DNA of 64,000 bases from Eledone cirrhosa (taxonomy: Eukaryota): positions 174,096,001-174,160,000 of the forward strand of contig OZ024741.1 in NCBI GenBank assembly GCA_964016885.1. The letters are read 5' to 3'. A program made the translations under genes and the position numbers. Shown in pieces: positions 6,992 through 61,866 of this stretch (positions within the stretch are counted from its first letter, which is position 1; the number at the start of each line of letters is the position of its first letter). The notes beneath the pieces are model-generated. The model was not told the origin of the DNA. It saw only the letters and a program-made list of their open reading frames with translations, and searched no databases.

Positions 6992-8001
6992 TAACCCTAC
7001 AAACGTCCCTGACCCGAGTAAACTTCCTGGACGTGACCCTCGACCTCGAAAACGACCTGTACTACCCATACAGGAAACCTAATGACAATCTGCACTACAT
7101 CCACCGCCGATCAAACCATCCTAGGAACATCACAAACAACCTGGTCAAAAACATCTCCCTCTGCATATCCCGTTTGTCAGCTAATGAGCGGATATTCGAT
7201 GAACATGCGCCTTATTACAACCAGGCCCTCAAGCGGAGTGGTTTCCGGGAGGAAATATCCTACTGTCCAGCTCCCATTAGCGGAACCAGCAGGAGACACC
7301 GCCGTTCACGCAATGTAACATGGTTCAATCCTCCCCACAACGCAGAGGTGACAACTCCCATCGGGAAACTATTCTTTAGGCTCATTGAAAAACACTTCCC
7401 ATTACAACACCGCTACCACAACATAATTAACAAAAATACCATCAAACTCTCTTACAGCACTACACCAAACTTCGCACAAAACATCGTCTCCTCTAACAAC
7501 AAAAAACTCAACCCCGATGGCAGAAATAACCTAAATAGCAGTGGAGAACCGACCAGGAGGTGTAACTGCCCGGATAGATCTATTTGCCCACTCGACAATA
7601 GATGCAGAGACCGTAATGTGATCTACCAGTGCAACGTGAGGACGGATACCTCCAACAAAGCCTATATAGGACTTACCGCATGTGACTTCAAGACCCGGCT
7701 ATACCAACATAGACATACCTTCCGAAACCCGGCCCGGCGTCACGCCACTACACTTTCGGGCCACATATGGGACCTCAAGGACAACAACATCACCTATGAT
7801 CTCACTTGGAGATTACTGTCCAGAGCCAATTCTTACACGGGAGGACGCCGTCCGTGCAATTTATGCTCGGAGGAAACTTTACAAATGCTGTTTTCGACGG
7901 ACCAACTCCTAAACAAGAAAGATGAACTGGTTACTGCATGTAAACATAGATTGCGTAGGACTTACCTCACCCTCAAACCCCATAATGACCCGGGGGGGTA
8001 G
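6992..8001 (+). CDS. PLE polyprotein C-terminal fragment (RT thumb + GIY-YIG); no native start codon
   Basis: Part of ORF 6841..8001. The first ~50 aa of that ORF come from the Tc1 TIR and flanking DNA and are not element sequence. Confidence 0.8.
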
Positions 8002-9122
8002 ACTAGGGCTATAACACCCCACTTGCCGATTTTGCAATGGGTAACCCCTGCTTGCCAAGGGAGACGTAAGATCTTCTTTGTATTCTTTTATCGCTTCCTT
8101 TATTTCCTTCCCACCTCTCTCCTTAGTCCTTCTACCCCAGCTCTTCTCCTTTGTCGGCGTCTTTTCTCGCCCACCCGAGGCTGCCCTTTGGCCCCTTGTA
8201 GCCTTAGTACCCCCACCCCCTCCCCTAGTCTATGATAGATTTGGCGGACTCCGCCCTTTATAGCAGTTGGTTTAGACCCCGGATACTTGTCCCCTTTTTC
8301 CGACCGCTCCCACTATTCTCTGTGCCCTCTATATTTCTTAGTGGCACTTATGCCTTATTTTTTCGTTTCAGTATTTCTTTCTTCGCTTTTCTTTTGGGCG
8401 AGGTGGATTCTGAATTTATTTTTCCGTATTCTACCTTTGCTTCGTACGAACTTTCATGTAGCTTGTTTTAGATCTTTTAGAGTTAGCATTAGTATATATT
8501 TTTCTCGGGACTCAGAATTATTATCTCGTACTAGTTCACTCTGCTGCACTGGGTGGTTGCTGGCATTGTGCCCGGGATGGAAACCTTTATTGTTTATTTC
8601 GTGGTAGTCTCTTTAGTATGTTGGCCCCTTTTGTTGACCTGTCACCGTATCATTTACGTACTTATACCTCTTAAAAGGGTCCTTGCCTATTCCGTCCCAC
8701 CTAGTTCTTTTACTTATTTCGTTATTTCTTTATTTCTTTCTTTACTTCTTTCTTTCTTTATTTATTTATTTATTCTAGCCTAACAATAGCTAGAGACCTA
8801 GGTCGTAGAATTTAATTTACTTTACTTTTTTCTTTACACTTATTTGCTTTTCTTCACTCTCAGTATTTTTTCTTTCCTATATATCTCTACCCCCCATTGT
8901 TCTACCTACCGTTCCGACTTCCTCCCCCTCCCCCTCCCCCTCCCCTGTATCTTCTTTGACCTCATGCCCAGCTGTAGCTGGCACTACCAACGCTTGATTG
9001 GGTCTACTCCACCCCCTCCCCTCTTTCTCCTACTGGCAGGTTTAGCCACCATCTCCCCTACTAATTTGCAACCACAGAATTACTACTGATTTTTGACAAT
9101 CACTTTGACCATATATGGAATT

Positions 9123-9216
9123 ACCCCTTGAGAAGATCGGCTATTTAAATACCAGGATAAATTTTCATTTAGTCCAGAATTAGCCGTCGAAACGGCTTGA
9201 GCTCAGCTGTCGGGGT
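9123..9216 (+). ncRNA. Type I hammerhead ribozyme with U3-A8 core variant
   Basis: Stem I ACCCC(9123-9127)/GGGGT(9212-9216). Core TTGAGAA(9128-9134). Stem II GA(T)CGGCTA/TAGCCGTC. GAAA at 9189-9192. Stem III ACGGCT/AGCTGT capped by the palindrome TGAGCTCA. GUC cleavage triplet at C9211. Confidence 0.8.
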
Positions 9217-9367
9217 CTTACTGGTTCCTATTACCCACTCTACTACTTCAAGTATTGAGTACTTTGGTGCGTTATGGTCCACCTGGTTCCTTACCACATT
9301 TCCTTCGTTATATATATATATATATATAAATTACACAATAATCAAAGTTATGTTCAAATCATTTTAT

Positions 9368-9414
9368 TGCTGACAATCGTTTCTTCCACACTTTCGTTTG
9401 GAGTCATCAGAGCA
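9368..9414 (-). ncRNA. Minimal type I hammerhead ribozyme with canonical CUGAUGA core
   Basis: The minus strand reads TGCT CTGATGA CTCCAAACGAAAGTGTGGAA GAAA CGATTG TC AGCA ATAAA. Stem I TGCT/AGCA, stem II TCCA/TGGA, short stem III, GUC site. Confidence 0.78.
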
Positions 9415-10233
9415 CCAGCAATGTTTGTACATATAGTTAACCTCCTATTCAACTGAAAAATCATGTAGATACATGGATATTAATGCTGTCAACAACAGTT
9501 TTGTATTTACAGAGTGGAATGGATGCAACATATATTACAAGAGAATTGTACAATAATTAAAATTAAAAGGCACAGAGTGGAATGCATGCAGCAAATATCA
9601 CAAGGGAATAGTATGATAATTAAAGAGGCATTAAGGAGAAAAGTTACTTGTAAAACGAGGACACCAGTAGTACATATGCAAGCGTGTAGAGAGTGCAAAT
9701 GCGTTGGTTATATATAGGAAGGAGACAAACAATGACACTAGGCATATATAATTACTGTATGGCAAAGGTTTCACATAAAATAACATAGGTTTACAAGCAT
9801 ATCAAGCAGGCAAAGGTGTTTGTGTGTTACATCCACCATAAACTCGTAATTTTAATACACAAACACCTTTGCCTGCTTGATATGCTTGTAAACCTATGTT
9901 ATTTTATGTGATACCTTTGCCATACAGTAATTATATATGCCTAACGCATTTGCACTCTCTACACGCTTGCATATGTACTACTGGTGTCCTCGTTTTACAA
10001 GTAACTTTTCTCCTTAATGCCGCTTTAATTATCATACTATTCCCTTGTGATATTTGCCGCATGCATTCCACTCTGTGCCTTTTAATTTTAATTATTGTAC
10101 AATTCTCTTGTAATATATGTCACATCCATTCCACTCTGTAAATACAAAACTGTTGTTGACAGCATTAATATCCATGTATCTATATGATTGTTCAGTTGAA
10201 TAGGAGGTTAACCATATGTACAAACATTGCTAG

Positions 10234-10280
10234 TACTCCGATGACTCCAAACGAAAGTGTGGAAGAAACAATTGTCAGCA
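10234..10280 (+). ncRNA. Minimal type I hammerhead motif with U4C core (CCGAUGA), partner of 9368-9414
   Basis: TACT CCGATGA CTCCAAACGAAAGTGTGGAA GAAA CAATTG TC AGCA, followed by AATAAA at 10280-10285. Stem III is the palindrome ACAATTGT. Stem I has one mismatch. Confidence 0.65.
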
Positions 10281-10459
10281 ATAAAATGATTTGAACATAA
10301 CTTTGATTATTGTGTAATTTATATTCCTGCTCTGTAAAACATCTGATGTATTTACATTGAGCTATTTTTCTTACTGGTAATAAGGTAGTAATGAGTTACT
10401 GACCTTTCCTGTTTATAATTGTATATAGTGTATACATAACTATAAATAGTATCATCATT

Positions 10460-11921: not shown

Positions 11922-14900
11922 AACGTTAAAATATTCTGTGTGAACTATGCATTAGGTAAGCCATCACAAGACAGACACACTTTAAACTCCTACAAAATCT
12001 GGAAAAGTCGGAATCAAGCTAGCAGACGTGATATGGATGGAAATAAGTTGGCAAATGTAAGGAGGTATATCTTCAGAAATAATAGACTCACAGACACTGA
12101 ACTAACTGCGATCAAGCAGGCTGTGGAGTATGACATAAATATAAAGAACTGAAGAATCTCCTGGAGATAGTAACCAGTCACAAGTCTTTACTGAAAGACG
12201 TCCATCTGACCAAATCACAAATAGGTTTGTAGAAATGAGAAGCTCTATTGAACCTGCTGAAAATAGCCAGGAAAGGGACTTAGAAACAGTAATTGAAAAC
12301 CAAACATATGCTGAAGAACACAGGGAGACTATGAAGGAATTAAAGCAAAAAATACTGAATGAGCTTGCAGTAGTAAGACATTCTAGTATAAATGATAGAG
12401 AACCACTTCAAAAACTCCCAAATACAATCCAAAATAGAAAACAAATAATGATTGGTAATTCTGTGACAAAAGAAATCATAGAAGAACTAGAACCTGATCT
12501 TACTGAGTTATCATTTATGCATCTGCTAGAGTAATTGAAACAAGTTGTTTACCATAAAAAAAACAAAAAAAGTCAAACCTTCGAGGTAAACCAATTTGGT
12601 GGAGTAGAATCAAAAAGGAGATTGACGTAATGAGAGGAGAAATATCTTTATTGAGTGAGTTAACCGCTGGAAAGGATATAAGATCCAAGAAGGTAAGAAA
12701 GCTAAAGAGAAAATATGGACTGTCTTCTAGAGAAGCAATAGTTTCAACAAAAGAATCTCTGAAACAAAAAGTCCAAGTAAAAGCCCAATGAATTCATAAA
12801 TTTGAGAAGCGAAACAACTTCTACAGGCAAAATAAGTTGTTCTCATCCAATGCCAAGTCATTTTATAGAGAAGTAGGGAAGAAAAAAATAATTACTTCTG
12901 GAGTAAGATTTGGAGTGATGAGAAGACATATAATACTAATGTAGATTGGATTAGTCGCCTGGAAAAATACTACACAAATTTAGAACAGGCGTGGGAAGAC
13001 ATCTCTATACCGTACTTAAGGAGAGCACTCAATAAATCTCATAAATGGAAATCTCCTGGTAGAGACATGGTGCCAAATTTCTGGCTTTCCTCACTCCCGT
13101 GCACTCACAATATATTGGTCAAGCTGTTTAATGGAATTATGAAAGATCAAAAAAATACACCTGATTGGATAGCAAGTGGCATTACCTACCTTCTACCAAA
13201 GAACAACGAAACCAAAGATCCAAAAAAACTATCGGCACATAACCTGCTTGTCCACCACTTATATCCTATTAACCTCTATTCTCATGGAGAAAGCATACGT
13301 GTTTTGGGAGAGAACAATCTTTTCCCCATTGAACAAAAAGGGTGCCGACGAGGTTCATATGATTGCAAAGATCAACTTTTGATTAATCATATGATCCTTG
13401 AGAACTGTCATAATAAACACAGAAATCTCAGTTCTTCATGAATCGATTATAAAAAAGCCTTTGACAGCATATCACACTCATGGATTTTGAAATCACTGGA
13501 CATCTTCAAAATCTCACCTGTGATCTCAGTATGTCATTATGGAACACTAATCTCCAATTGTCTCATACCACTGGGGTACTGTGCTCTAGGAATATAAACA
13601 TCAACTGTGGTATATTCCAGGGTGACTCACTTTCACCCTTGCTTTTCTGCATAGCTTTAATACCCCTTATATCCGAACTTAATAGAACAGGGTACAGTTA
13701 TAAAATTGACAACAAAAAAATAAGCCACATATTTTATATGGACGATTTGAAGCTATATTGCAAAGATAATGATGAACTGGAAAGCCTTTTGCGGACAGTA
13801 AAAACGTTTAGCGATGACATCAGGATGGAGTTTGGACTTGACAAGTGTGCAAAAGCCACTTTCAAGAAGGGGAAGCTTGTCAACTCAGACTCAGTTGAAT
13901 TGGATGCTGAAACAATCATAAAAGAACTTGAGCAGGAACAAACCTATAAATACTTAGGGATTAATGAGGGCTCTGGCATACAGCATGCAAGTATGAAAGT
14001 GAGGATAAGAAAAGAATGTTACAGGAGAGTACGTGCAGTTCTGAGATCAGAACTAAACGCTCGTAACAAGGTACTAGCCATAGATTCCTTGGCAGTCCCA
14101 GTTGTCACTTATAGCTTCGGTGTGTTGAACTGGAATATGAGTGAAATCAAAAGAATCGACACCAAAGTCCGTAAGCTACTGACCTCTATGTAATAGGATG
14201 CACCACCCAAAAGCAGATGTTGATCGTCTTTACCTTCCTAGAACTCAAGGAGGCTGTGGCCTGATCCAATTTGAACTTGCTTACAAGACGACCATCATTG
14301 GACTGGCCAAATAATATCTTGAAACAACTAACGACTGTATGCTGAAACTTGTTGAAAAGCATGAGAGAAGTAAGAAGCTTCATTCTATCTTGAAGGAGAG
14401 CCAAAAATATGCTACTGATCTCATGCTTGATAACCAGGTTGGACAGACTAAAGAAACTGTTGCAACTGATGCTGCTAGGCACATAAAATCACTGGCAAAA
14501 TCAAAAGGGCAAGGACAAATTGCATCAAATTGGGAACAGAAACCTCTGCATGGCAAATATGTGGCCCGTAGCAAACAAGCTGATGTTGACCAAAAGCACA
14601 TCGATCAGTGGCTACGTAGTTCAGGGCTAAAGGCAGAGAGTGAAGGCTTCATCTTAGCTGCCCAAGATCAAAGCTTATTGACTCGTAATTACCAGGCCAA
14701 TGTGATGAGAAACGGAATAAATCCAAAGTGCCGATTCTGCAATGCTGAGGTTGAAACAGTGGATCACTTAGTCTCTGGATGTAAAGTTTTAGCACCAGTA
14801 GAATGCAAATATAGACATGACAGAGTTGGCCAATATCTACACTGGGTAATATGTCGGCATTACAAAATCAAAGCTGAAGACAAGTGGTACACTCATCACC

Positions 14901-15504
14901 CTGAGGTTGTAACTGAAGGAGAAAAACTAACAATTCTCTGGGACTTTCCTGTACAGACTGAGAGGACCATAAAAGCAAATAAACCTGACATCATTGTAAA
15001 AGATCAACATAACAAGGTCTGTTTATTGATAGATATGAGCATCCCATGAGATCACAATATCGTGGCAAAAGAATTTGACAAGCTACAAAAATATAAAGAT
15101 CTGCTTATTGAAATTGAGAAAATGTGGCACCTCAAGGCCGTTACAATACCAGTGATTGCGGGAGGACTGGGAATGATCAAGAAAGGAACAGAACAATATT
15201 TGCGAATGATTCCTGGTTTACCCTCTCTGCACGAGGTGCAAAAAATTGTTTTAACTGGTACTGCACACGTATTGAGAAGAGCACTATCTCTGTAAGATTG
15301 ATATCCCTCCTTGTATTTACATATGCATATGCATGTGTATATATGTATACTGTTTTTTTTTTTTTAAATTATAATCAATGTGCTGTATTAACTGGCTTAC
15401 CAATGCACACTGTGAATTTATTTGCCCTAGGTGTCAGGAAGACATTCGGCATATATCTCAGAAACAATAATGAAAGAAAATAAAAATGATGATAATAATA
15501 ATAA
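11920..15504 (+). mobile_element. Near full-length, mutated Dong/R4-clade non-LTR retrotransposon (RT + CCHC + restriction-like endonuclease)
   Basis: Frame fragments include KLANVRRYI, KDPKNYR.ITCL, EQKGC, IDYKKAFDS, GIFQGDSLSPLLF, FYMDDLKLY, YKYLG, CRFC..ETVDHLVSGC, RHD, NKPDII..LIDMSIP and EFDKLQKYKDL. The element ends in (TAA)n. Multiple stops and frameshifts. Confidence 0.93.
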
Positions 15505-20425: not shown

Positions 20426-21628
20426 TTAATGGTTAGGTTCAGTAATGTGCCTCTCTGAGCTCTGCACCCAAGGAAGCTGCCTAGTTGGCCACAATGGTAG
20501 CACCAACCCTGAGTACAGTGATGCTTCAGTATAAATCTCTACTTTAGCTATGTATTTATTCTCACTGCTACAAGGTAATGATTGAAACAGTTACTATGAA
20601 ATAGTTAAAAGAGATTTGTCACATAATTATTATGTTTAAGACAATTTATGGTTAATTGACTAACTAACTACATTTGTTAAAAAAAAAACATTTATTTATC
20701 TAATATAATATAAATAGCCAAATATTTTAGCTTTAGAAGGAAATAAAATTTTTTGAGAATATCAAGATGCTTTTATTCATTTAAATTAAAACAAAGAAAA
20801 CAACAACATTATATTTTGATTATGGGGAAAACCATTTCTAAATGTATGACATTTAGTTTAAAATATCAATTATCTATTTATTTGCTGCTGATGTATTCAA
20901 TAATGGTTTATTTACTTTATTTTAATTTTATGATAATAATGATGTCATTAATTTTAATTTTTTTTCAACTAATGTATTTAATCATGATTGGCAAATATAT
21001 TTCAAGTTTTATATTGGTGAACATTGACATGTTCCTTTAATAGTGTGTTAATCATCATCATCATCATCTTTGTTTTTACATGTGTTTGCCCATTCTGACA
21101 TGTATGGGTTGTGTGAAAGTATTTTGAGGCAGAATTCTATGGTCAGATGCACGCACTTCAAGATGCAAGATCTCATCTTTTCTTTTTTTCTTTTTCTTTT
21201 TCTTTTTTTTTTTAGTAAAGCACAAAATCTCTGGATATTTAACTACTGGAGTGTGTGAGACATATAAATAAATGTCATCAACTGCACTCGCAATGTCAAA
21301 TGCAAAGTGCTGAGACACACATACTCTGTATTTAGAGCCATGCTTGGAAGTGATTATCATATATGTTTAAAAGTCTGGCCTCAGCACCAAACCTTGCAGT
21401 ATACTGTATATCCTGTCTGTAGTATGATCATACATAAACTGCAGAGACCATTTAAGTATAACATTTGGAATAAGCAAACCAGCACAATTGTTAGATCATA
21501 AGACAAAATTCCTTGCAGTACTTATTCTGGCTCTGATCTCTGACTTCAGCATATGCCACCAGAATGGAAAGTGCACTAAAACATTATTAATGATAATGAT
21601 GTTTTAGTGCACTTTCCATTCTGTTTAA

Positions 21629-22323: not shown

Positions 22324-24677
22324 CATCATCATCATCAACGTTTAACGTCCGTGTTCCACGCTTGCATGGGTTTGGACGGGGGTTTTCCCACTTGAGGCAA
22401 GAGTGATTATCTTGCTCGCATAGGACTATCTGGCGAGTTTTCTACAGCTGGATGCCCTTCCTAACATCAACCACATTTACAGTGTGGGGCTGGGAGGTTT
22501 TTACCGTGTTGCCTACACGGCCACATTACAGCGTTGACTGTCTGGCGGGTTTTCTACAGCTGGATGCCCTTCCTAACACCAACCGCATTTACAGTGTGGG
22601 GCTGGGAGGTTTTTACCGTGTTGCCTACACGGCCACATTTACAGCGTGAACTGTGTGTTTTTTTGTCGTGACACCTACATGATCTCATTTGTTTCGGCCT
22701 GGATGTTGTGGCACCAACATAACTTTACATTGAAAGGGGCGGTGTGGATGGGGTGGGGGTGGTGGGACGGGGTGTATTTTGTTAGAGATGCCTACTGACT
22801 GTAGTAGGTTTACTTTGTATTTAGGCAAGGCGGGTCTTCTCTGTTACTGAGTACCGCCAAAGGTCTCGGTCCAGTGACATTGTCTTGGAGAGGTGTAAGT
22901 GTGTGAGGTCAGAATTTATCAGCTCGTCCCAGGTTTTTCTGGGTCTGCCTATTCCGTGGCTACCGTCTATCTTTATTGCCCTGCACTTTGTTATACAGCT
23001 ATCGTCTTTCATGCACATCACGTGACCATACCAACGTAGCCTTCTCTCGAGTAAACAACATCTGATCCCTCTTATTTCTAATTTTTTCCTTAGTTCGTTT
23101 ATGCTTTGCCGTTCACGTATATTACTGTTACACATCCAGCGGAGCATGCAAGCTTCGTTCCTCTCCAGTCTGCGTATATCCTCTGCACACAATGCCCAGG
23201 TCTCACTGCCATGCAACATTGCTGTTCGTATGCAGGCATCGTACAACCTGCCTTTCATTTTTAGGGAGAACCCTTTAGCGGCTAATAACTTTTTCCATCC
23301 AGTTCTGACTCGAGCTACTGTACTTTCAGAGCACCCTCCCCCACTGCTGATTTTGTCACCCAGGTAACGGAAGCTGTCCACTATTTCTATAGAACCCTCT
23401 GCGCAGCTGAAAGAGCTAGTATTTTGTGGGCACTTGCTGCTACTTATTGCACCAGAGCACTGGCCACATGTAAAATCTATGTTCTTAGTTAGCTTACCTG
23501 TGATCCCACTACATCTTTTATGCACCCATACTTTGCATTTGGGACACAAAATGGAGTTTCTACCTACGCCTTTCCTACACACTGAGCATGGCCACTTCCC
23601 GGAAGGGACCGCCGCCTTATTTTCTTTCTTACAAACTAGAACTTTAGTCTTAGCCAGGTTAATTTTAAGGCCTTTTGATTCTAGGCCGTGCTTCCATGTT
23701 TGGAATTTCTTCTCTAGCTCGGCCATTGATTCAGCTATGAGTGTTAGGTCATCTGCGTATAGGAGTTCCCATGGGCAACCGGTCTTGAACTCCTCTGTTA
23801 TAGCCTGAAGGGCAATAATAAATAGTAGGGGGCTGAGAACAGAGCCCTGATGGACGCCAACTTTTACGCTAAACTCTTCACTATATTCGTTGTTAATTCT
23901 AACCTTGCTGACTGTTTCTTTATACATGGCTTGTATAGCTCTCACAAGCCATTCGTCAACACCTAGTTTTCTAAGAGCCCACCAGATAATGGAACGGGGG
24001 ACTCTGTCGAAGGCTTTCTCCAAGTCGACAAAAGCTAAGTATAGGGGTTTACTTTTAGCTAAGTACTTCTCCTGTAGTTGTCGTACAATGAAAAGAGCAT
24101 CTGTGGTACTTTTGCCTGACACAAACCCGAACTGCATTTCATCTAGATCAATTCTCTCTCTGATTAGTTGCGCTATTACTTTTTCCGTGACCTTCATGAC
24201 CTGGTCAATTAATTTAATGCCTCTATAGTTACTCCTATCTAGGGCATCTCCTTTACCCTTGTAACAGTTAACGATGATGCTGCTATGCCAGTCCTTCGGA
24301 ACAACCCCATTCTGTACGACTTGGTTAACTATCCGGGTGACCATGGTGTGTCCCACCGTACCAGATGCCTTCAGCATCTCGGCAACTATTTCCGAAGGCC
24401 CAGCCGCCTTATCCGTCTTCATATCTTTGATTGCCTTACTTATTATACTACCTTCGACTAACACTGCTGGTCCCTCTATTGGGTCGATGTGGGGGGGGAC
24501 TGTCTTTCTCCCATTTATTCTCCTCATTTAGTAGCCTTTCATAGTGACACTTCCAAGCTACCTTCTTATCAGCGTCGGTGATGGCAAGTACACCATCATC
24601 ATTAAGTACACACTTCTCCCCGACAATATCACGGTTTTCCTTGACACATTGCCTAGCAATCCTGAACACCTCACGTT
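22322..24677 (-). mobile_element. 5'-truncated, young RTE-clade LINE: RT with an inserted PHD finger and ~500-bp 3' UTR
   Basis: ORFs 24448..24756 and 22821..24527 are joined by one frameshift near the G run at 24491-24498. Motifs: KAAGPS, YKGKGD..NYRGIKL, QFGF, AFVDLEKAFDRV, GVHQGSVLSP, YADD, FRYLG, RRLRWYGHV, GRPRKTW. (ATG)n tail. (TA)n on both sides. No APE endonuclease region retained. Confidence 0.95.
22821..24527 (-). CDS. RTE ORF2 fragment: reverse transcriptase + PHD finger + C-terminal domain (568 aa open frame)
   Basis: RT motifs as in the element above. C4HC3 pattern CSVC-x10-CPKC-x4-H-x2-C-x14-CGQC at ~23457-23588. Confidence 0.85.
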   Translation of the reverse strand: MRRINGRKTVPPHIDPIEGPAVLVEGSIISKAIKDMKTDKAAGPSEIVAEMLKASGTVGHTMVTRIVNQVVQNGVVPKDWHSSIIVNCYKGKGDALDRSNYRGIKLIDQVMKVTEKVIAQLIRERIDLDEMQFGFVSGKSTTDALFIVRQLQEKYLAKSKPLYLAFVDLEKAFDRVPRSIIWWALRKLGVDEWLVRAIQAMYKETVSKVRINNEYSEEFSVKVGVHQGSVLSPLLFIIALQAITEEFKTGCPWELLYADDLTLIAESMAELEKKFQTWKHGLESKGLKINLAKTKVLVCKKENKAAVPSGKWPCSVCRKGVGRNSILCPKCKVWVHKRCSGITGKLTKNIDFTCGQCSGAISSSKCPQNTSSFSCAEGSIEIVDSFRYLGDKISSGGGCSESTVARVRTGWKKLLAAKGFSLKMKGRLYDACIRTAMLHGSETWALCAEDIRRLERNEACMLRWMCNSNIRERQSINELRKKLEIRGIRCCLLERRLRWYGHVMCMKDDSCITKCRAIKIDGSHGIGRPRKTWDELINSDLTHLHLSKTMSLDRDLWRYSVTEKTRLA

Positions 24678-43012: not shown

Positions 43013-43092
43013 ATATTATTCAAAATATTAATAAATGGAGACATTTACATAATTATGTAAATGTCTCCATTTATTAATATTTTGAATAATAT
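43013..43092. repeat. Perfect 80-bp palindrome with no spacer
   Basis: ATATTATTCAAAATATTAATAAATGGAGACATTTACATAA|TTATGTAAATGTCTCCATTTATTAATATTTTGAATAATAT. Confidence 0.92.
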
Positions 43093-50526: not shown

Positions 50527-52253
50527 AATGACCAATAAGATTCCAATGGCAGAGAGAGAAATTACTCTTAGTCGATCCGACAGAGGGACCAGCTATTGAG
50601 ATTGACGAATATAGGGTCCAAGAGGCGATTAAGGAAATGAAAAATGGTAAGGCTGCTGGACCATCGGGAATAGTTGCTGAGATGCTGAAGGCATCAGGGG
50701 ACGTAGGCACTAAACTGGTTGCACGCATCATCAATCAGGCTATATATGGTGGTGTCATACCCAAATACTGGTGCAGCAGTATTCTCATAAATTACTACAA
50801 AGGTAAAGGGGATGGGGTAAAGGGGTATAAAACTGATGGATCAGGTTATGAAAGTGGCAGAAAGGATATGAGCACAACTAATTAGAGAAAGGGTCAAACT
50901 AGATGAGATGCAGTTTGGTTTTGTGCCTGGGAAGAGTACAACAGATGCTCTCTTCTTGGTGAGACAATTGCAAGAGAGGTTCTTAGAGAAAAATAAGCCA
51001 TTATACTTGGCCTTTGTTGACCTAGAGAAGGCCTTTGATAGGATACCCCGATATGTCATCTGGTGGTTCCTAAGGAAACTAGGTGTTGAGGAATGGCTTG
51101 TGAGGACAGTGCAAACTTTGTACAGAGGTACTCTCAGTAAAGTCAGGGTAGGAATGGAGTTTAGTGAGGAATTCCAGATACAAGTAGGAGTACATCAAGG
51201 TTCGGTCATCAGCCCGTTCATTATAGTCCTCCAAGCCACAACAGAGGAGTTTAAGACTGGCTGTCCATGGGAACTTCTCTATGCTGACGATCTGGTCCTT
51301 ATAGCAGAATCAGTAGAGGAGCTAGAAAATAAATTTTGGCTATGGAAACAGCAGTTGGAAGCAAGAGGACTGAGAGTGAACCTAGCTAAGACAAAAGTGT
51401 TGATGAGTAGAAAAGAGGACAAAACTCTGATTCCGTCAGGGAAATGGCCATGTTCGATATGCAGAAAAGGAACTGGCATAAATTCTATAAAATGCACACA
51501 ATGCAGATCCTGGGTACACAAGAGATGTAGCGGGATAGCAGGCAAACTAACAGGTAGGGAGAAATATGTATGCAGTAGATGTCAGAGAAATTAGACAGTA
51601 GAAGTCGCATTGATAGACACATTTTTCAAATGCAGGAGGGTGCTATAGAAGTGGTTGATAACTTCCGGTACCTAGGAGATCAGATTTGCATGGGAGGGGG
51701 GTGTTCCGAGGCCATAGTATCTAGAATAAGGATGGGTTGGAAGAAGTTTAAGGAGTTGCTCTCCCTGCGTGCGAAAGGACGGTTATATGATGCCTGTGTG
51801 AGGAGCGCGATGCTGCATGGTAGTGAGACATAGGCAGCAACTGCAGAGGATATGCGATGGCTGGAGAGAAATGAGGCAAGCATGCTCTGTTGGATGTGCA
51901 GTGTAAATGTGCGTGAACGACCCATCATAAATGTGTTGAGAGAGAAACTGTGTCTGAGAGGGATAGAATGTAGTGTACAGGAGAGGAGACTGAAGTGGTA
52001 TGGACATGTGATGCGTATGGAGGATGACCGATGGGTGAAGAAGTGCCAGGAAATGCCAGTTGAAGTAAGACGTGGTAGAGGTAGACCACAAAAAACATGG
52101 GTGGAGGTGGTGAGAACAGACCTCAGATCGTTGAAGCTCACGGTGGAGATGACGAAGGACCGTGACGAGTGGAGAGATGCTGTGCTGAATAAGACCCGTC
52201 CCACCCTTGCAAGCAGAGAAGAGCAGACGTAAAATGATGATGATGATGATGAT
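50527..52253 (+). mobile_element. 5'-truncated RTE LINE, second subfamily (RT + PHD, almost no 3' UTR)
   Basis: KAAGPSG, QFGF, AFVDLEKAFD, YADD, CSIC...CTQC...HKRC...CSRC, FRYLGD, RRLKWYGHV, GRPQKTW. The stop is followed directly by (ATG)n. Several frameshifts. Confidence 0.92.
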
Positions 52254-55895: not shown

Positions 55896-56139
55896 CCCTT
55901 TCATGACCATAGTTTTAATTAAATACACTGTATTCTAATTAATTATTGAAAAATTTAGAGAGGTATATTAAAATTATGAATAGTTTTATTATTGAGGTGA
56001 TATTTATAACATAACTTAACAAAGGTTTCTTACTTAAAATTATGCTGGAAGGTTTTAATTTAAATATGAACTCATATAAAATGGCTATTTTTGTTTCATA
56101 GAATCAAAGGTAGCTTTGAGCAATTCAATATCAAAAGGG
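55896..56139. mobile_element. Degenerate TTAA-type MITE, second family (related sequences near 19050-19310, 56180-56330, 4990-5125)
   Basis: TTAA|CCCTTT ... AAAAGGG|TCAA. Internal ACATAACTTAACAAAGG...GGAAGG is shared between copies. Confidence 0.55.
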
Positions 56140-56477
56140 TCAATAAAGATATATTTAATATAGATGTGAGATTAGGCTTATTGATACCAATCCACCCAAA
56201 ACCACAGCTGGTTCAATGACACAAAACGACACATTTTAAAGCGTTCCTATTTAAATTAAAATCTTGCAACATAATTTTATATAAGAATCTTTTTGTTAAG
56301 TTATGGTACAAATACCATTTTAACCTTTAAAACACTATCGGTGACAAATTATGACAGTAATCTCCCCTTAATATATAATGCACTATCAAGGGAAGGAATT
56401 CATTAAAAAATTCAGCGTGCTGAAGATTAAGTGAATTGGTAAACAATCTGTATTTTTTTTTTTTTATCCTATATAAG

Positions 56478-59316: not shown

Positions 59317-59683
59317 TATGCAAGAATATTACAGAAACAATATTAATTATATAATATAATTCACATGACAAGCTACAAAAGTAATCAGAATATAGAAATA
59401 TTACTTACATTATTTATTATACTTAAATTATAGCTATACAGCTGTTTGGAATCTCAGAGAAAATATCCACCAAATACCATGGTTAAAATAAACAAGGTAG
59501 AATTTATTTCAACCATGGTAATTGGTAAATTTTTTTTTATTTGGAATTCATAATCACCTGTATAGATATAATGTAAGTATAATAAGTAATGTAAGTAATA
59601 GTTTTACGTTGTTATTACCTTTGTACCTTGTCAGATGTATTATATTATATAATTAATATTGTTTTCTGTAATATTCTTGCATA
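59317..59683. repeat. Imperfect AT-rich ~365-bp hairpin (possible old MITE)
   Basis: TATGCAAGAATATTACAGAAACAATATTAATTATATAAT ... ATTATATAATTAATATTGTTTTCTGTAATATTCTTGCATA. Inner arms TACCATGGTTAAAATAAA / TTTATTTCAACCATGGTA. Confidence 0.8.
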
Positions 59684-60331
59684 AGAGTTCTCTGAAATAT
59701 ATATATATATATCCTAAACGGACGGTAGTCCATTTAGTAATATTGTTGTGGTTGTGTTTTCGTTGGCAATCGTCTGTTTACGACAGTACAGCGCGGCTCT
59801 ACTTTATTTAACTGAGATAAAACTTATATGAGCATGAACAGTAGATCATTACGCATCTTTTGGCTTGAAAATCTAGAAATTTGGTCCAGCGGGAAAAGGT
59901 TTATAATCAAAGTTTGCTGATAACTCTTGTGTTCAAGTGAGTGAGTAGTAAGCGTGACGCTAGGGGAGGTAATCCAAAAATTACGTTTGCTTTGTAAGTA
60001 AATTGGAGAGAATCACTGCAGTCAAAGTCATTTCTTTGCATGGGTTTTTGTCCATTCTAAAAAGTTAAAATGATAAAGTATTACTACTATATAACTTACA
60101 TCTATTGTTGTAACACCATTGAAATGCACAAGTTTCACCAATTCACTATTATGCACTAATCATCTCAAATGCATTCATGATTTACTAGCTTTGTCATTAA
60201 GCCAGTTGCCTCAACTAGATTGCAATTATACTCAAAAGAACTTTAAAATGTCAATCACTTGTCAGTAATTCACTATGATCATTTTATTATTAGATAGTTG
60301 TTGCTTGCATTGCCTTAAAAAATAGTAGACC

Positions 60332-61422
60332 AGATAGAAAAATGCGTACAGCAAAAAAAAGTAATATTGTTGGAATATAAACCTTTAAAAATACAGGACA
60401 AGAAACTAAAATAAAACTTTAAAAGAATAGGACAAGAAACTAAGATAAAACTTTAAAAGAATAGGACAAGAAACTAAGATAAAACTTTAAAGAATTGGAC
60501 AAGAAATAAAAAATTTTACAATAATATTAATGGCAACATTTTTTTATTTGTTTCCTGTGCTATGCCCAAGTATCTTCTTGATTAGTGCATAATAATTGTC
60601 ATGCTCTCATTGTGCGTTGCCCCTGAGCGGTTGATTCTGGTTGGGGTTGGTTGGCTGAGCAGTTCTGCTCCGTCAGAATGACCATTGCAAGAAGAATTGG
60701 CCGATGGAGCTGCAGGTCTCCTCCAAGAATGCACTTCTGGTCCCGCAACACCAGACGAAGATGGAGAAGACGACCGGGACAAGATGTCGACTCTGACCAC
60801 CGACTACGGCACCTCCCTCAACCACCAGTCCTCCCTCCCTCTGTCCCGTCATCTCTCCAGTCCTCCTGCTCCCCCTTCTTGTACCAGAAAGCTGTGGCAC
60901 GCATTCAGCTGGACTGCCGGACTTGAACTCAAGGACAAGATGCAAGGAGAAGATGGACTGGTTGGTCAAGATCAAGGATGAGTGGGACGACAAGACCGTC
61001 CGCTGCTGCTCAAGATCTGTGCTCATGGGCCCATGGATCCATTCACATTATGCATGACACATGAGGCGTGTCGCCGAATGATGAAATAGGGGTATGGTTA
61101 TGGCCCAATTGGTGTTCAAACCAGGATCAAATGATCCCCCCCCGTTCTGACGACGACCTCTGAATGTGGAACCCAGAGCCTATGAATGTGGAACTCGATT
61201 TTTTACCAATAAAAATTTTGCCACTAATATTATTGTAAAATTTTTTATTTCTTGTCCAATTCTTTAAAGTTTTATTTTAGTTTCTTGTCCTATTCTTTTA
61301 AAGTTTTATCTTAGTTTCTTGTCCTATTCTTTTAAAGTTTTATTTTAGTTTCTTGTCCTGTATTTTTAAAGGTTTATATTCCAACAATATTACTTTTTTT
61401 TGCTGTACGCATTTTTCTATCT
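60332..61422. mobile_element. Foldback-type element: ~215-bp inverted repeats containing 34-bp tandem modules around a GC-richer ~650-bp core
   Basis: AGATAGAAAAATGCGTACAGCAAAAAAAAGTAATATTGTTGG ... CCAACAATATTACTTTTTTTTGCTGTACGCATTTTTCTATCT. The module AGGACAAGAAACTAAGATAAAACTTTAAAAGAAT occurs 3-4 times per arm. Confidence 0.85.
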
Positions 61423-61434
61423 TATATATATTTG

Positions 61435-61755
61435 TAGAATGGAAAACAAAAATCAGTGATGCATCGGAACTCAATTTATTGTGTTACAATTGTTTCCCCA
61501 GCGAACAGCTTGAGGTGCGATCTGTGTGTGGATTGACCTGACTCTAAACTCGCAGGTTCCTTGGACACATCTATTGATTGCGGAGCATGTCCTCTTTCAT
61601 GCTCCGAAATCAATAGACGTGTCCGAGGAACCTGCGAGTTTAGAGTCAGGTCAATCCACACACAGATCGCACCTCAAGCTGTTCGCCGGGGAAACAATTG
61701 TAACACACAATAAATTGAGTTCGAATGCATCACTGATTTTTCGTTTTCCATTCTA
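61435..61755. mobile_element. About 320-bp non-coding palindrome with head-to-head HHR-like motifs
   Basis: Arms 61435-61589 and 61598-61755 with an 8-nt loop TCCTCTTT. Each arm has GTGT-CC(G/A)AGGA-long stem II-GAAACAATTGTA-ACAC-AATAAA facing outward. Confidence 0.9.
61619..61706 (+). ncRNA. Type I hammerhead-like motif with U4C core (CCGAGGA) and extended stem II; mirror copy at 61481-61568 on the minus strand has CCAAGGA
   Basis: Stem I GTGT/ACAC. Core at 61623-61629. Stem II CCTGCGAG/TTCGCCGG. GAAA at 61691-61694. Stem III is the palindrome ACAATTGT. GUA site at 61702. AATAAA at 61709-61714. Confidence 0.62.
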
Positions 61756-61828
61756 TAATACTCTGCTCCATAGGAGCATAGAGTGCTCAACCGGCATACC
61801 GCCTATGGAAGCATCTTAGCTACCATTA

Positions 61829-61866
<38 letters not shown>

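Follow-up and report, generated by a model that had tools for sequence, protein, structure and literature searches.

A palindromic repeat of Eledone cirrhosa as a probable dead insertion of a Penelope-like element with Hydra-clade motifs

Several described systems resemble the palindrome analyzed here. Penelope-like elements (PLEs) of the Hydra clade, as characterized in the relevant sections of Craig et al. (2021, PMC8557442), have RW(K/R) and DKT motifs, a CxCX5C linker, CxxC and CxH motifs around E/N, a C-terminal GIY-YIG domain, (TA)n targets, and a hammerhead near the 3' end with unpaired bases beside stem II and a short helix III. Examples given there are Penelope-13_HM, which has an inverted 5'-truncated copy, Penelope-2_NV and Hydra-1_Obim. 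Head-to-head pseudo-LTRs (pLTRs) with a tail on one side only, as well as solo pLTRs, are described for PLEs in parts of that paper and of Arkhipova et al. (2013, PMC3846280), and dual minimal hammerheads 100–700 bp apart on opposite strands were reported by Cervera and de la Pena (2014, PMC4209133). In the parts of these three papers at hand the inverted repeats are treated qualitatively, with self-priming or endonuclease resolution invoked, and we found there none of the pairing counts, 5'-end cliff or end-specific (CA)n and (CT)n tracts given below; the PLE literature, as far as it was available, describes the origin of the inverted repeats and of the one-sided tail as unresolved. The protein of PAc (Poseidon, Anolis) was shown in vitro to cleave and extend both strands of an AT-rich target, with two internal start sites of reverse transcription that bound the tail (main account in Frangieh et al., 2024, PMC11167929). 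Non-LTR retrozymes, in the available account, are small non-coding elements with a type I hammerhead related to pLTRs (bioRxiv 10.64898/2026.07.22.740005).

We analyzed a window of 64,000 nucleotides (contig OZ024741.1, positions 174,096,001 to 174,160,000) in which a hairpin of about 400 bp is embedded in TA repeats. This hairpin is an ordinary dead PLE insertion of an already published architecture, and the counts over its family record the insertion reaction cleanly. We hold with good confidence that it consists of two 5'-truncated end copies of a PLE with Hydra-clade motifs, joined head to head in (TA)n, likely through separate priming of both target strands. Compared with the Hydra-clade elements in the consulted parts of PMC8557442, the parent is longer (~4.6 kb versus <3 kb) and has a low-complexity insert after the thumb, a microsatellite-rich UTR, a ~76-nt tail, a very long stem II (61-nt region) and U4C in the main lineage. 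PAc belongs to another clade; its tail lies within the ORF, whereas here the tail precedes the first long-ORF ATG, and in the PAc data consulted (PMC11167929) the in vitro start sites did not differ between strands. The retrozymes of the bioRxiv account are head-to-tail tandem units; the copies here are solo or head to head, with no sign of a master of their own.

The window hairpin and its hammerhead-like motifs

Comparison of the window with itself gave a self-inverted match at 61432–61758 (330 columns, 91.5% identity, E=7.6e-129), whose 8-nt loop is closed by CATG/CATG (Table 1). The left arm begins with GAAAGAGG at 61598, coinciding with the pile-up of 5' ends in the family, and its 3' end is ...CCATTCT at 61436. 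The right arm starts about 8 nt more 3' than the left, and the junction between them shares 1 nt (C61598). The loop TCCTCTTT is the reverse complement of part of GAAAGAGGA and has the sense of the tail-less arm. A sequence-only reading of this stretch had described a hairpin closed by an 8-nt loop, a right-arm tail that has no counterpart on the left and runs into (TA)n, and a pLTR-plus-tail organization, all of which are borne out. It had also placed a small hairpin in the tail: one is predicted at 61759–61785, formed locally by TACTCTGCTCC/ATA/GGAGC-AT-AGAGTG, and the pairing named for it, GCTCCATAGG...CCTATGGAAGC, exists only in a variant, since in the family alignment most copies have GCTCCGTAGG.

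Table 1. Features of the palindrome (positions in the window)
Feature	Position	Strand	Description
Short interrupted TA run	61423..61435		left portion of the likely target
Left arm	61436..61598	-	tail-less, 5'-truncated copy of the PLE 3' end (pLTR)
Mirror hammerhead-like motif	61481..61568	-	core CCAAGGA (U4C + G5A)
Loop TCCTCTTT	61590..61597		additional 5' sequence of the tail-less arm
Right arm	61598..61832	+	tail-bearing, 5'-truncated copy, terminus ...CATTAGACA
Type I hammerhead-like motif	61619..61706	+	stem I GTGT/ACAC, core CCGAGGA (U4C), GAAA, palindromic ACAATTGT
Tail, ~76–78 nt	61755..61832	+	right side only; parent's leader between pLTR and ORF
(TA)n	61833..61863		right portion of the likely target microsatellite

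The hammerhead layout claimed for both arms was found and, U4C and the 61-nt stem II region aside, is similar to that of the Hydra hammerheads in the part of the PMC8557442 supplement that lists them. The right arm reads GTGT (61619–61622), CCGAGGA (61623–61629), 61 nt, GAAA (61691–61694), CAATTG, T, A61702, ACACAC and AATAAA, with a long, interrupted stem II (61631–61690) and a predicted cut after A61702. On the minus strand the left arm reads GTGT, CCAAGGA, then further on GAAACAATTGTA, ACAC and AATAAA. An Rfam scan of the window at the gathering threshold returned no matches, so the hammerhead call rests on layout rather than on a model match. The core, read earlier as CC(G/A)AGGA, is present in these two forms, and the left one now carries G5A in addition to U4C; the left motif is predicted to be inactive. 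G5A, seen in 13/108 and similar in frequency to changes at other CpG sites, is likely the result of CpG decay. According to the portion of PMC3088659 consulted, U4C reduces hammerhead activity and need not abolish it.

Across 135 arms of the family the core was CCGAGGA in 65, CCAAGGA in 10, CTGAGGA in 26 and something else in 34, and one sublineage has the canonical U4 in 23/27, with linked changes that preserve or lengthen helix I. Common variants in helix I and proximal helix II keep their pairing through one-sided changes (GC/GU, GU/AU, UG/CG); two-sided changes are rare (4/135 at one pair), so covariation support is one-sided and weak, and one common variant disrupts a distal stem pair in 37/135 arms. 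The whole element folds at −297.6 kcal/mol, and the fold constrained to an active-like form lies 4.1 kcal/mol above the MFE. The earlier view of a dual-ribozyme design does not hold up: the two motifs are on opposite strands, each transcript would contain a single motif in sense orientation, base-paired to the antisense copy that it also carries, and the left core has lost G5. Judged by sequence, the hammerhead represents the ribozyme motif usual for pLTRs of this family, passively doubled, and the doubling is a by-product because each strand of the palindrome has one sense motif paired with antisense.

Other features lie nearby in the window. Immediately left of the hairpin, 60332–61422 is occupied by an element whose terminal inverted repeats are 212 bp long (98.6%), with ~39-bp tandem units inside; it looks like a non-autonomous DNA transposon. 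A third TA-flanked palindrome, at 59317–59697, possibly represents another PLE family; its arms are 81% identical, it is extended by ~15 nt on its right side alone, and it shows no obvious hammerhead core. Shorter self-inverted stretches occur at 55998–56317 (71%), 43013–43092 (100%) and 21560–21623 (91%), and LINE-type RT fragments at 12869–15049, 22821–24527 and 50872–51594.

The parent element

Each arm is the 3' end (pLTR) of a PLE of ~4.6 kb, which was reached stepwise from the centre pattern through longer upstream sequence to a GIY-YIG frame. In a near-full-length copy on the minus strand of locus L091, a truncated UTR, the arm and the tail lead directly into the ORF, an arrangement that supports the PLE origin proposed for the hairpin. 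The ORF is broken by stops and frameshifts and reads MEKFQY...RMRWRAF, PSDKTG, LDIAYYYASV, YRDD, a thumb, an insert, the CxCx5C linker CNCRAGIQC and then the GIY-YIG endonuclease. It is followed by a microsatellite-rich UTR of ~1.5 kb and by the arm again, here terminating tail-less, and an inverted truncated copy lies upstream of the element. Six other long loci (L092–L097) also connect endonuclease, UTR and arm, making the arm contiguous with an RT/GIY-YIG ORF in 7/7 long loci inspected; two of them, L093 and L097, are head-to-head pairs on the kilobase scale. L091 accordingly has the RT and C-terminal GIY-YIG motifs of an EN+ PLE along with a partial tandem pLTR, a tail and an inverted copy.

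In Pfam searches, GIY-YIG was matched under the cut-off (E=0.0067) and the RT pieces matched no family. At E<=0.001 there were 1,826 relatives, four of which (713–806 aa) were inspected and have the same motif order; a word-indexed protein search with the RT and EN pieces found nothing, which is weak evidence. Set against section 11 of PMC8557442, the parent carries the Hydra-clade motifs, namely RMRWR (R for K), PSDKTG, CNCRAGTQC and CRLC..E..N..CRH, and its placement is by motif match. The Hydra-clade preference for (TA)n is also seen: (TA)3 lies within 40 nt of 80/100 tailed and 85/102 tail-less ends. An assignment to Neptune was dropped after the Hydra motif list matched. RMRWR and two diagnostic 15-mers were not found in the PMC8557442 supplement text. 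Between the RT thumb and the linker, at ~4460–3950 on the minus strand of L091, there is a long, R/T/D/N-rich, in-frame-looking insert, which recalls the inserts reported in rotifer Penelope ORFs in the part of PMC3846280 that treats them.

Two 3' ends, their pairing and the arm 5' ends

The host assembly searched comprises 3.0 Gb. A first family sample was selected by the palindrome itself and was excluded from the pairing and truncation counts. Resampling used internal patterns; an internal 25-mer has 423 exact matches genome-wide, the first 100 of which were taken, and 94 arms were analyzed after omission of 6 in already-sampled loci. Their 3' ends fall at two fixed sites ~76 nt apart: 62 arms are tail-less (...CCATTCT), 28 tail-bearing (...TTAGACA) and 4 end elsewhere. 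At both sites the parent continues with AT/TAT, which amounts to microhomology to the target, and each end type was also found alone, adjoining (TA)n.

The two ends are combined by a rule. Among 55 distinct head-to-head pairs outside the palindrome-selected set, 41 were mixed, 2 tail-less/tail-less, 1 tailed/tailed and 11 unclassified, so that 41/44 classifiable pairs have one end of each kind, with three exceptions (binomial p 4e-10, calculated on 42/45 with one pair entered twice). In the 34 close mixed pairs, the longer arm was the tail-less one in 19 and the tailed one in 13; in the other 2 the arms were equal. In 11 of the 34 the tailed piece is the tail only, with <=2 nt common to the arms, so there is no palindrome at all. 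At the junctions (35 rows), 23 overlap by a few bases, often 1–4 nt, 2 are blunt and 10 contain filler.

These pairs bear directly on fold-back synthesis, the mechanism advanced in the sequence-only reading, by which one PLE cDNA or antisense template folds, primes itself and is copied into the second arm; a variant adds a template switch to provide the tail. Self-priming was proposed by Arkhipova et al. (2013) in the section of PMC3846280 at hand, and several observations agree with it. The arms of palindrome-selected copies share 97/213 left-arm derived variants (3.3 per copy versus 0.5 for random pairs, a value reached by 0/20,000 permutations), their divergence is 5.2% within and 9.2% between copies, hairpin centres differ among copies, and the junction overlaps are short. 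However, a copy made from a tailed cDNA could contain nothing beyond it, and still the tail-less arm is so often the longer one; the tail cannot arise from copying a tail-less cDNA; close pairs that share essentially nothing make up about a third of the series; and both end types also stand alone. Because a fold-back copy cannot exceed its template, pairs with sequence found only in the tail-less arm need two separately primed cDNAs, and in the window itself the loop has the tail-less sense. Finally, two loci, L010 with 4 discordant sites and L162 with 6, pair arms that belong to different lineages. We regard fold-back as unlikely, and the mechanism originally proposed for this hairpin as probably wrong.

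Separate priming of the two strands, the reading we favor, has difficulties of its own. In the part of their study consulted, Frangieh et al. (PMC11167929) found no start-site difference between strands, and the one-of-each rule is not predicted from it. Three pairs break the rule, and arm similarity within copies is weaker in the unselected set (6.6% within versus 9.3% between, with a copy's own arm the nearest in 5/21). At lineage-diagnostic sites, 43/45 pairs had <3 discordant positions, while 57% of random pairs had >=3; one site, d=126, is an alignment artefact that raises discordance. With two discordant pairs, both RNAs would therefore usually, not always, come from one source, although the same concordance is equally expected from fold-back or from later gene conversion.

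The 5' ends of the arms form a cliff. Counted from the tail end, 38/94 lie at 220–250 nt and only 10/94 at 250–400 nt. The edge is CCCCA|GAAAGAGG, ~27 nt downstream of a TATA-like GATATAG, and TGACGTCA was found upstream of it in 34/50 arms. These DNA ends suggest that the RNA likely begins ~245 nt from the tail end, probably at a pLTR promoter; the edge could instead reflect a site of processing or the terminus of a short master. An RNA start at that distance, combined with internal initiation, would give a maximum of ~245 plus ~170 nt and so the element size of ~400 bp. We rejected a scheme in which the RNA start sets the length of tailed arms and tail-less arms derive from the 3' pLTR, since the two end types pile up together (8 and 14 arms at 235–250 nt) and some tailed arms extend to include the endonuclease. 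Hammerhead cleavage as the origin of the 5' ends was likewise unsupported, with <=1/94 arms compatible with the cut site and no pile-up there. The templates would therefore be mostly uncleaved, as in the PAc assay, where cleavage was not required according to the portion of PMC11167929 consulted.

Dinucleotide repeats are specific to the end type. (CA)>=2 follows 21/100 tailed and 0/102 tail-less ends, and (CT)>=2 follows 32/102 tail-less and 0/100 tailed ends (Fisher p 3e-15); the totals of 100 and 102 may include one or two duplicate loci. With >=3 units the counts are 17/100 for CA at tailed ends and 30/102 for CT at tail-less ends, and 461 background TA-run borders gave CA 30 and CT 10. 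The unit equals the last two bases of the element and sits between element and TA run. No mirrored GA or GT class was found on the far side of the insertion, and both (CA)n and (CT)n occur in 2/29 palindromes. The simplest reading that these repeats suggest is stuttering of the RT at initiation; priming within pre-existing compound tracts is a possible alternative. Slippage at the 3' end is known in LINEs. A literature search, whose coverage mostly excluded subscription papers, returned no relevant account of PLE slippage or microsatellite seeding.

A possible order of events and the remaining alternatives

Taken together, the steps could run as follows. An RNA likely begins within the pLTR, ~245 nt upstream of the tail end. 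Both (TA)n strands are likely cleaved by the GIY-YIG endonuclease. One strand would then prime at the tail end (...AGACA|UAU) and the other ~76 nt upstream (...CCAUUCU|AU), in each case with AT microhomology to the target. The RT would frequently stutter over the two template bases that it meets first, which would leave (CA)n or (CT)n. Both cDNAs would reach or fall short of the RNA 5' end, to at most ~245 and ~170 nt, and would be joined through short microhomology or filler. Both RNAs would usually come from the same source element, and the templates would be mostly uncleaved.

More tentatively, and with rather less than even confidence, PLE insertion may in general be an asymmetric two-RNA reaction, in which a dimeric RNP uses the tail end to prime one target strand and the tail-less site to prime the other, the RNAs are possibly held together by the palindromic ACAATTGT rather than cut, and a telomerase-related RT reiterates the first two template bases so that each insertion can seed (CA)n or (CT)n. 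If this were true, self-priming would give way to it as the explanation of PLE inverted repeats. For the in vitro PLE assay, the genomic counts predict that each strand has a single start site, that two RNA templates are used and that the RT stutters on dinucleotides as it initiates; stuttering of this kind would connect the PLE RT with telomerase-like repeat addition and with the origin of compound microsatellites.

A different proposal is a palindromic, non-autonomous master copied whole, with centres diversified by hairpin-tip deletion and arms homogenized by gene conversion. A query with the whole element returned 3,482 candidates genome-wide; 40 were scored, and 40/40 match over nearly the full length at 84–100%, so the window hairpin is one of at least 40 copies. 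These copies share the same outer ends and are about equal in length, as a master would have it, but they were picked by a palindromic query. In the unselected sample, arm lengths form a continuum from ~30 nt to >2 kb, including inverted pairs with the endonuclease. Centres vary by copy, with either arm the longer in the palindrome-selected set, and the exact recurrence of a centre sequence was seen only in a segmental duplicate; conserved centres had been suggested earlier as a check, and they differ from copy to copy. We consider a palindromic master very improbable. In one locus of the family (L046, 1–1300), part of the UTR has been amplified as a ~136-bp tandem array upstream of the arm.

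Helentrons and HINEs have asymmetric inverted repeats and a 3' hairpin. Derivation from such an element or from a MITE would fit the inverted repeats, the asymmetric end with its small hairpin and the AT-rich target, but its probability is negligible in view of an RT-encoding parent whose arm is joined to the RT/GIY-YIG ORF and whose tail enters the ORF start, of the series of 5' truncations with fixed 3' ends, and of the 30 loci examined, in which the outer ends are fixed, the flanks are mainly TA, GA or CA repeats and no fixed TSD is discernible (TA tracts would hide a TA duplication). A fixed TSD and the TIRs of a known MITE family had been named as findings that would speak against a PLE origin; a fixed TSD is not discernible, and the ends are asymmetric. 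Palindromes of this kind, ~400 bp in length, should not be annotated as MITEs.

The same architecture recurs in a second, unrelated family. The palindrome at 9324–10459 of the window has its tail-less end at 10324 and its tailed end at ~10455–10459, giving a tail of ~135 nt on the right. A permissive blastn comparison of the two palindromes gave no match, in agreement with the earlier statement that they have only their layout in common. This family has 3,770 candidates, and its tailed ends are often extended by (ATT)n. The one-tail rule holds here too: across 30 loci, the 3' end was visible in 8 inverted partners, and 8/8 lacked the tail. The adjacent stretch 7000–9310 is a 5'-truncated PLE of another family, with a frame covering thumb and GIY-YIG, a CNC-x5-C linker, a long UTR and a CTTGAGAAGA...GTCGAAAC motif near 9130–9195; its terminal (TA)n abuts the 9.3-kb palindrome.
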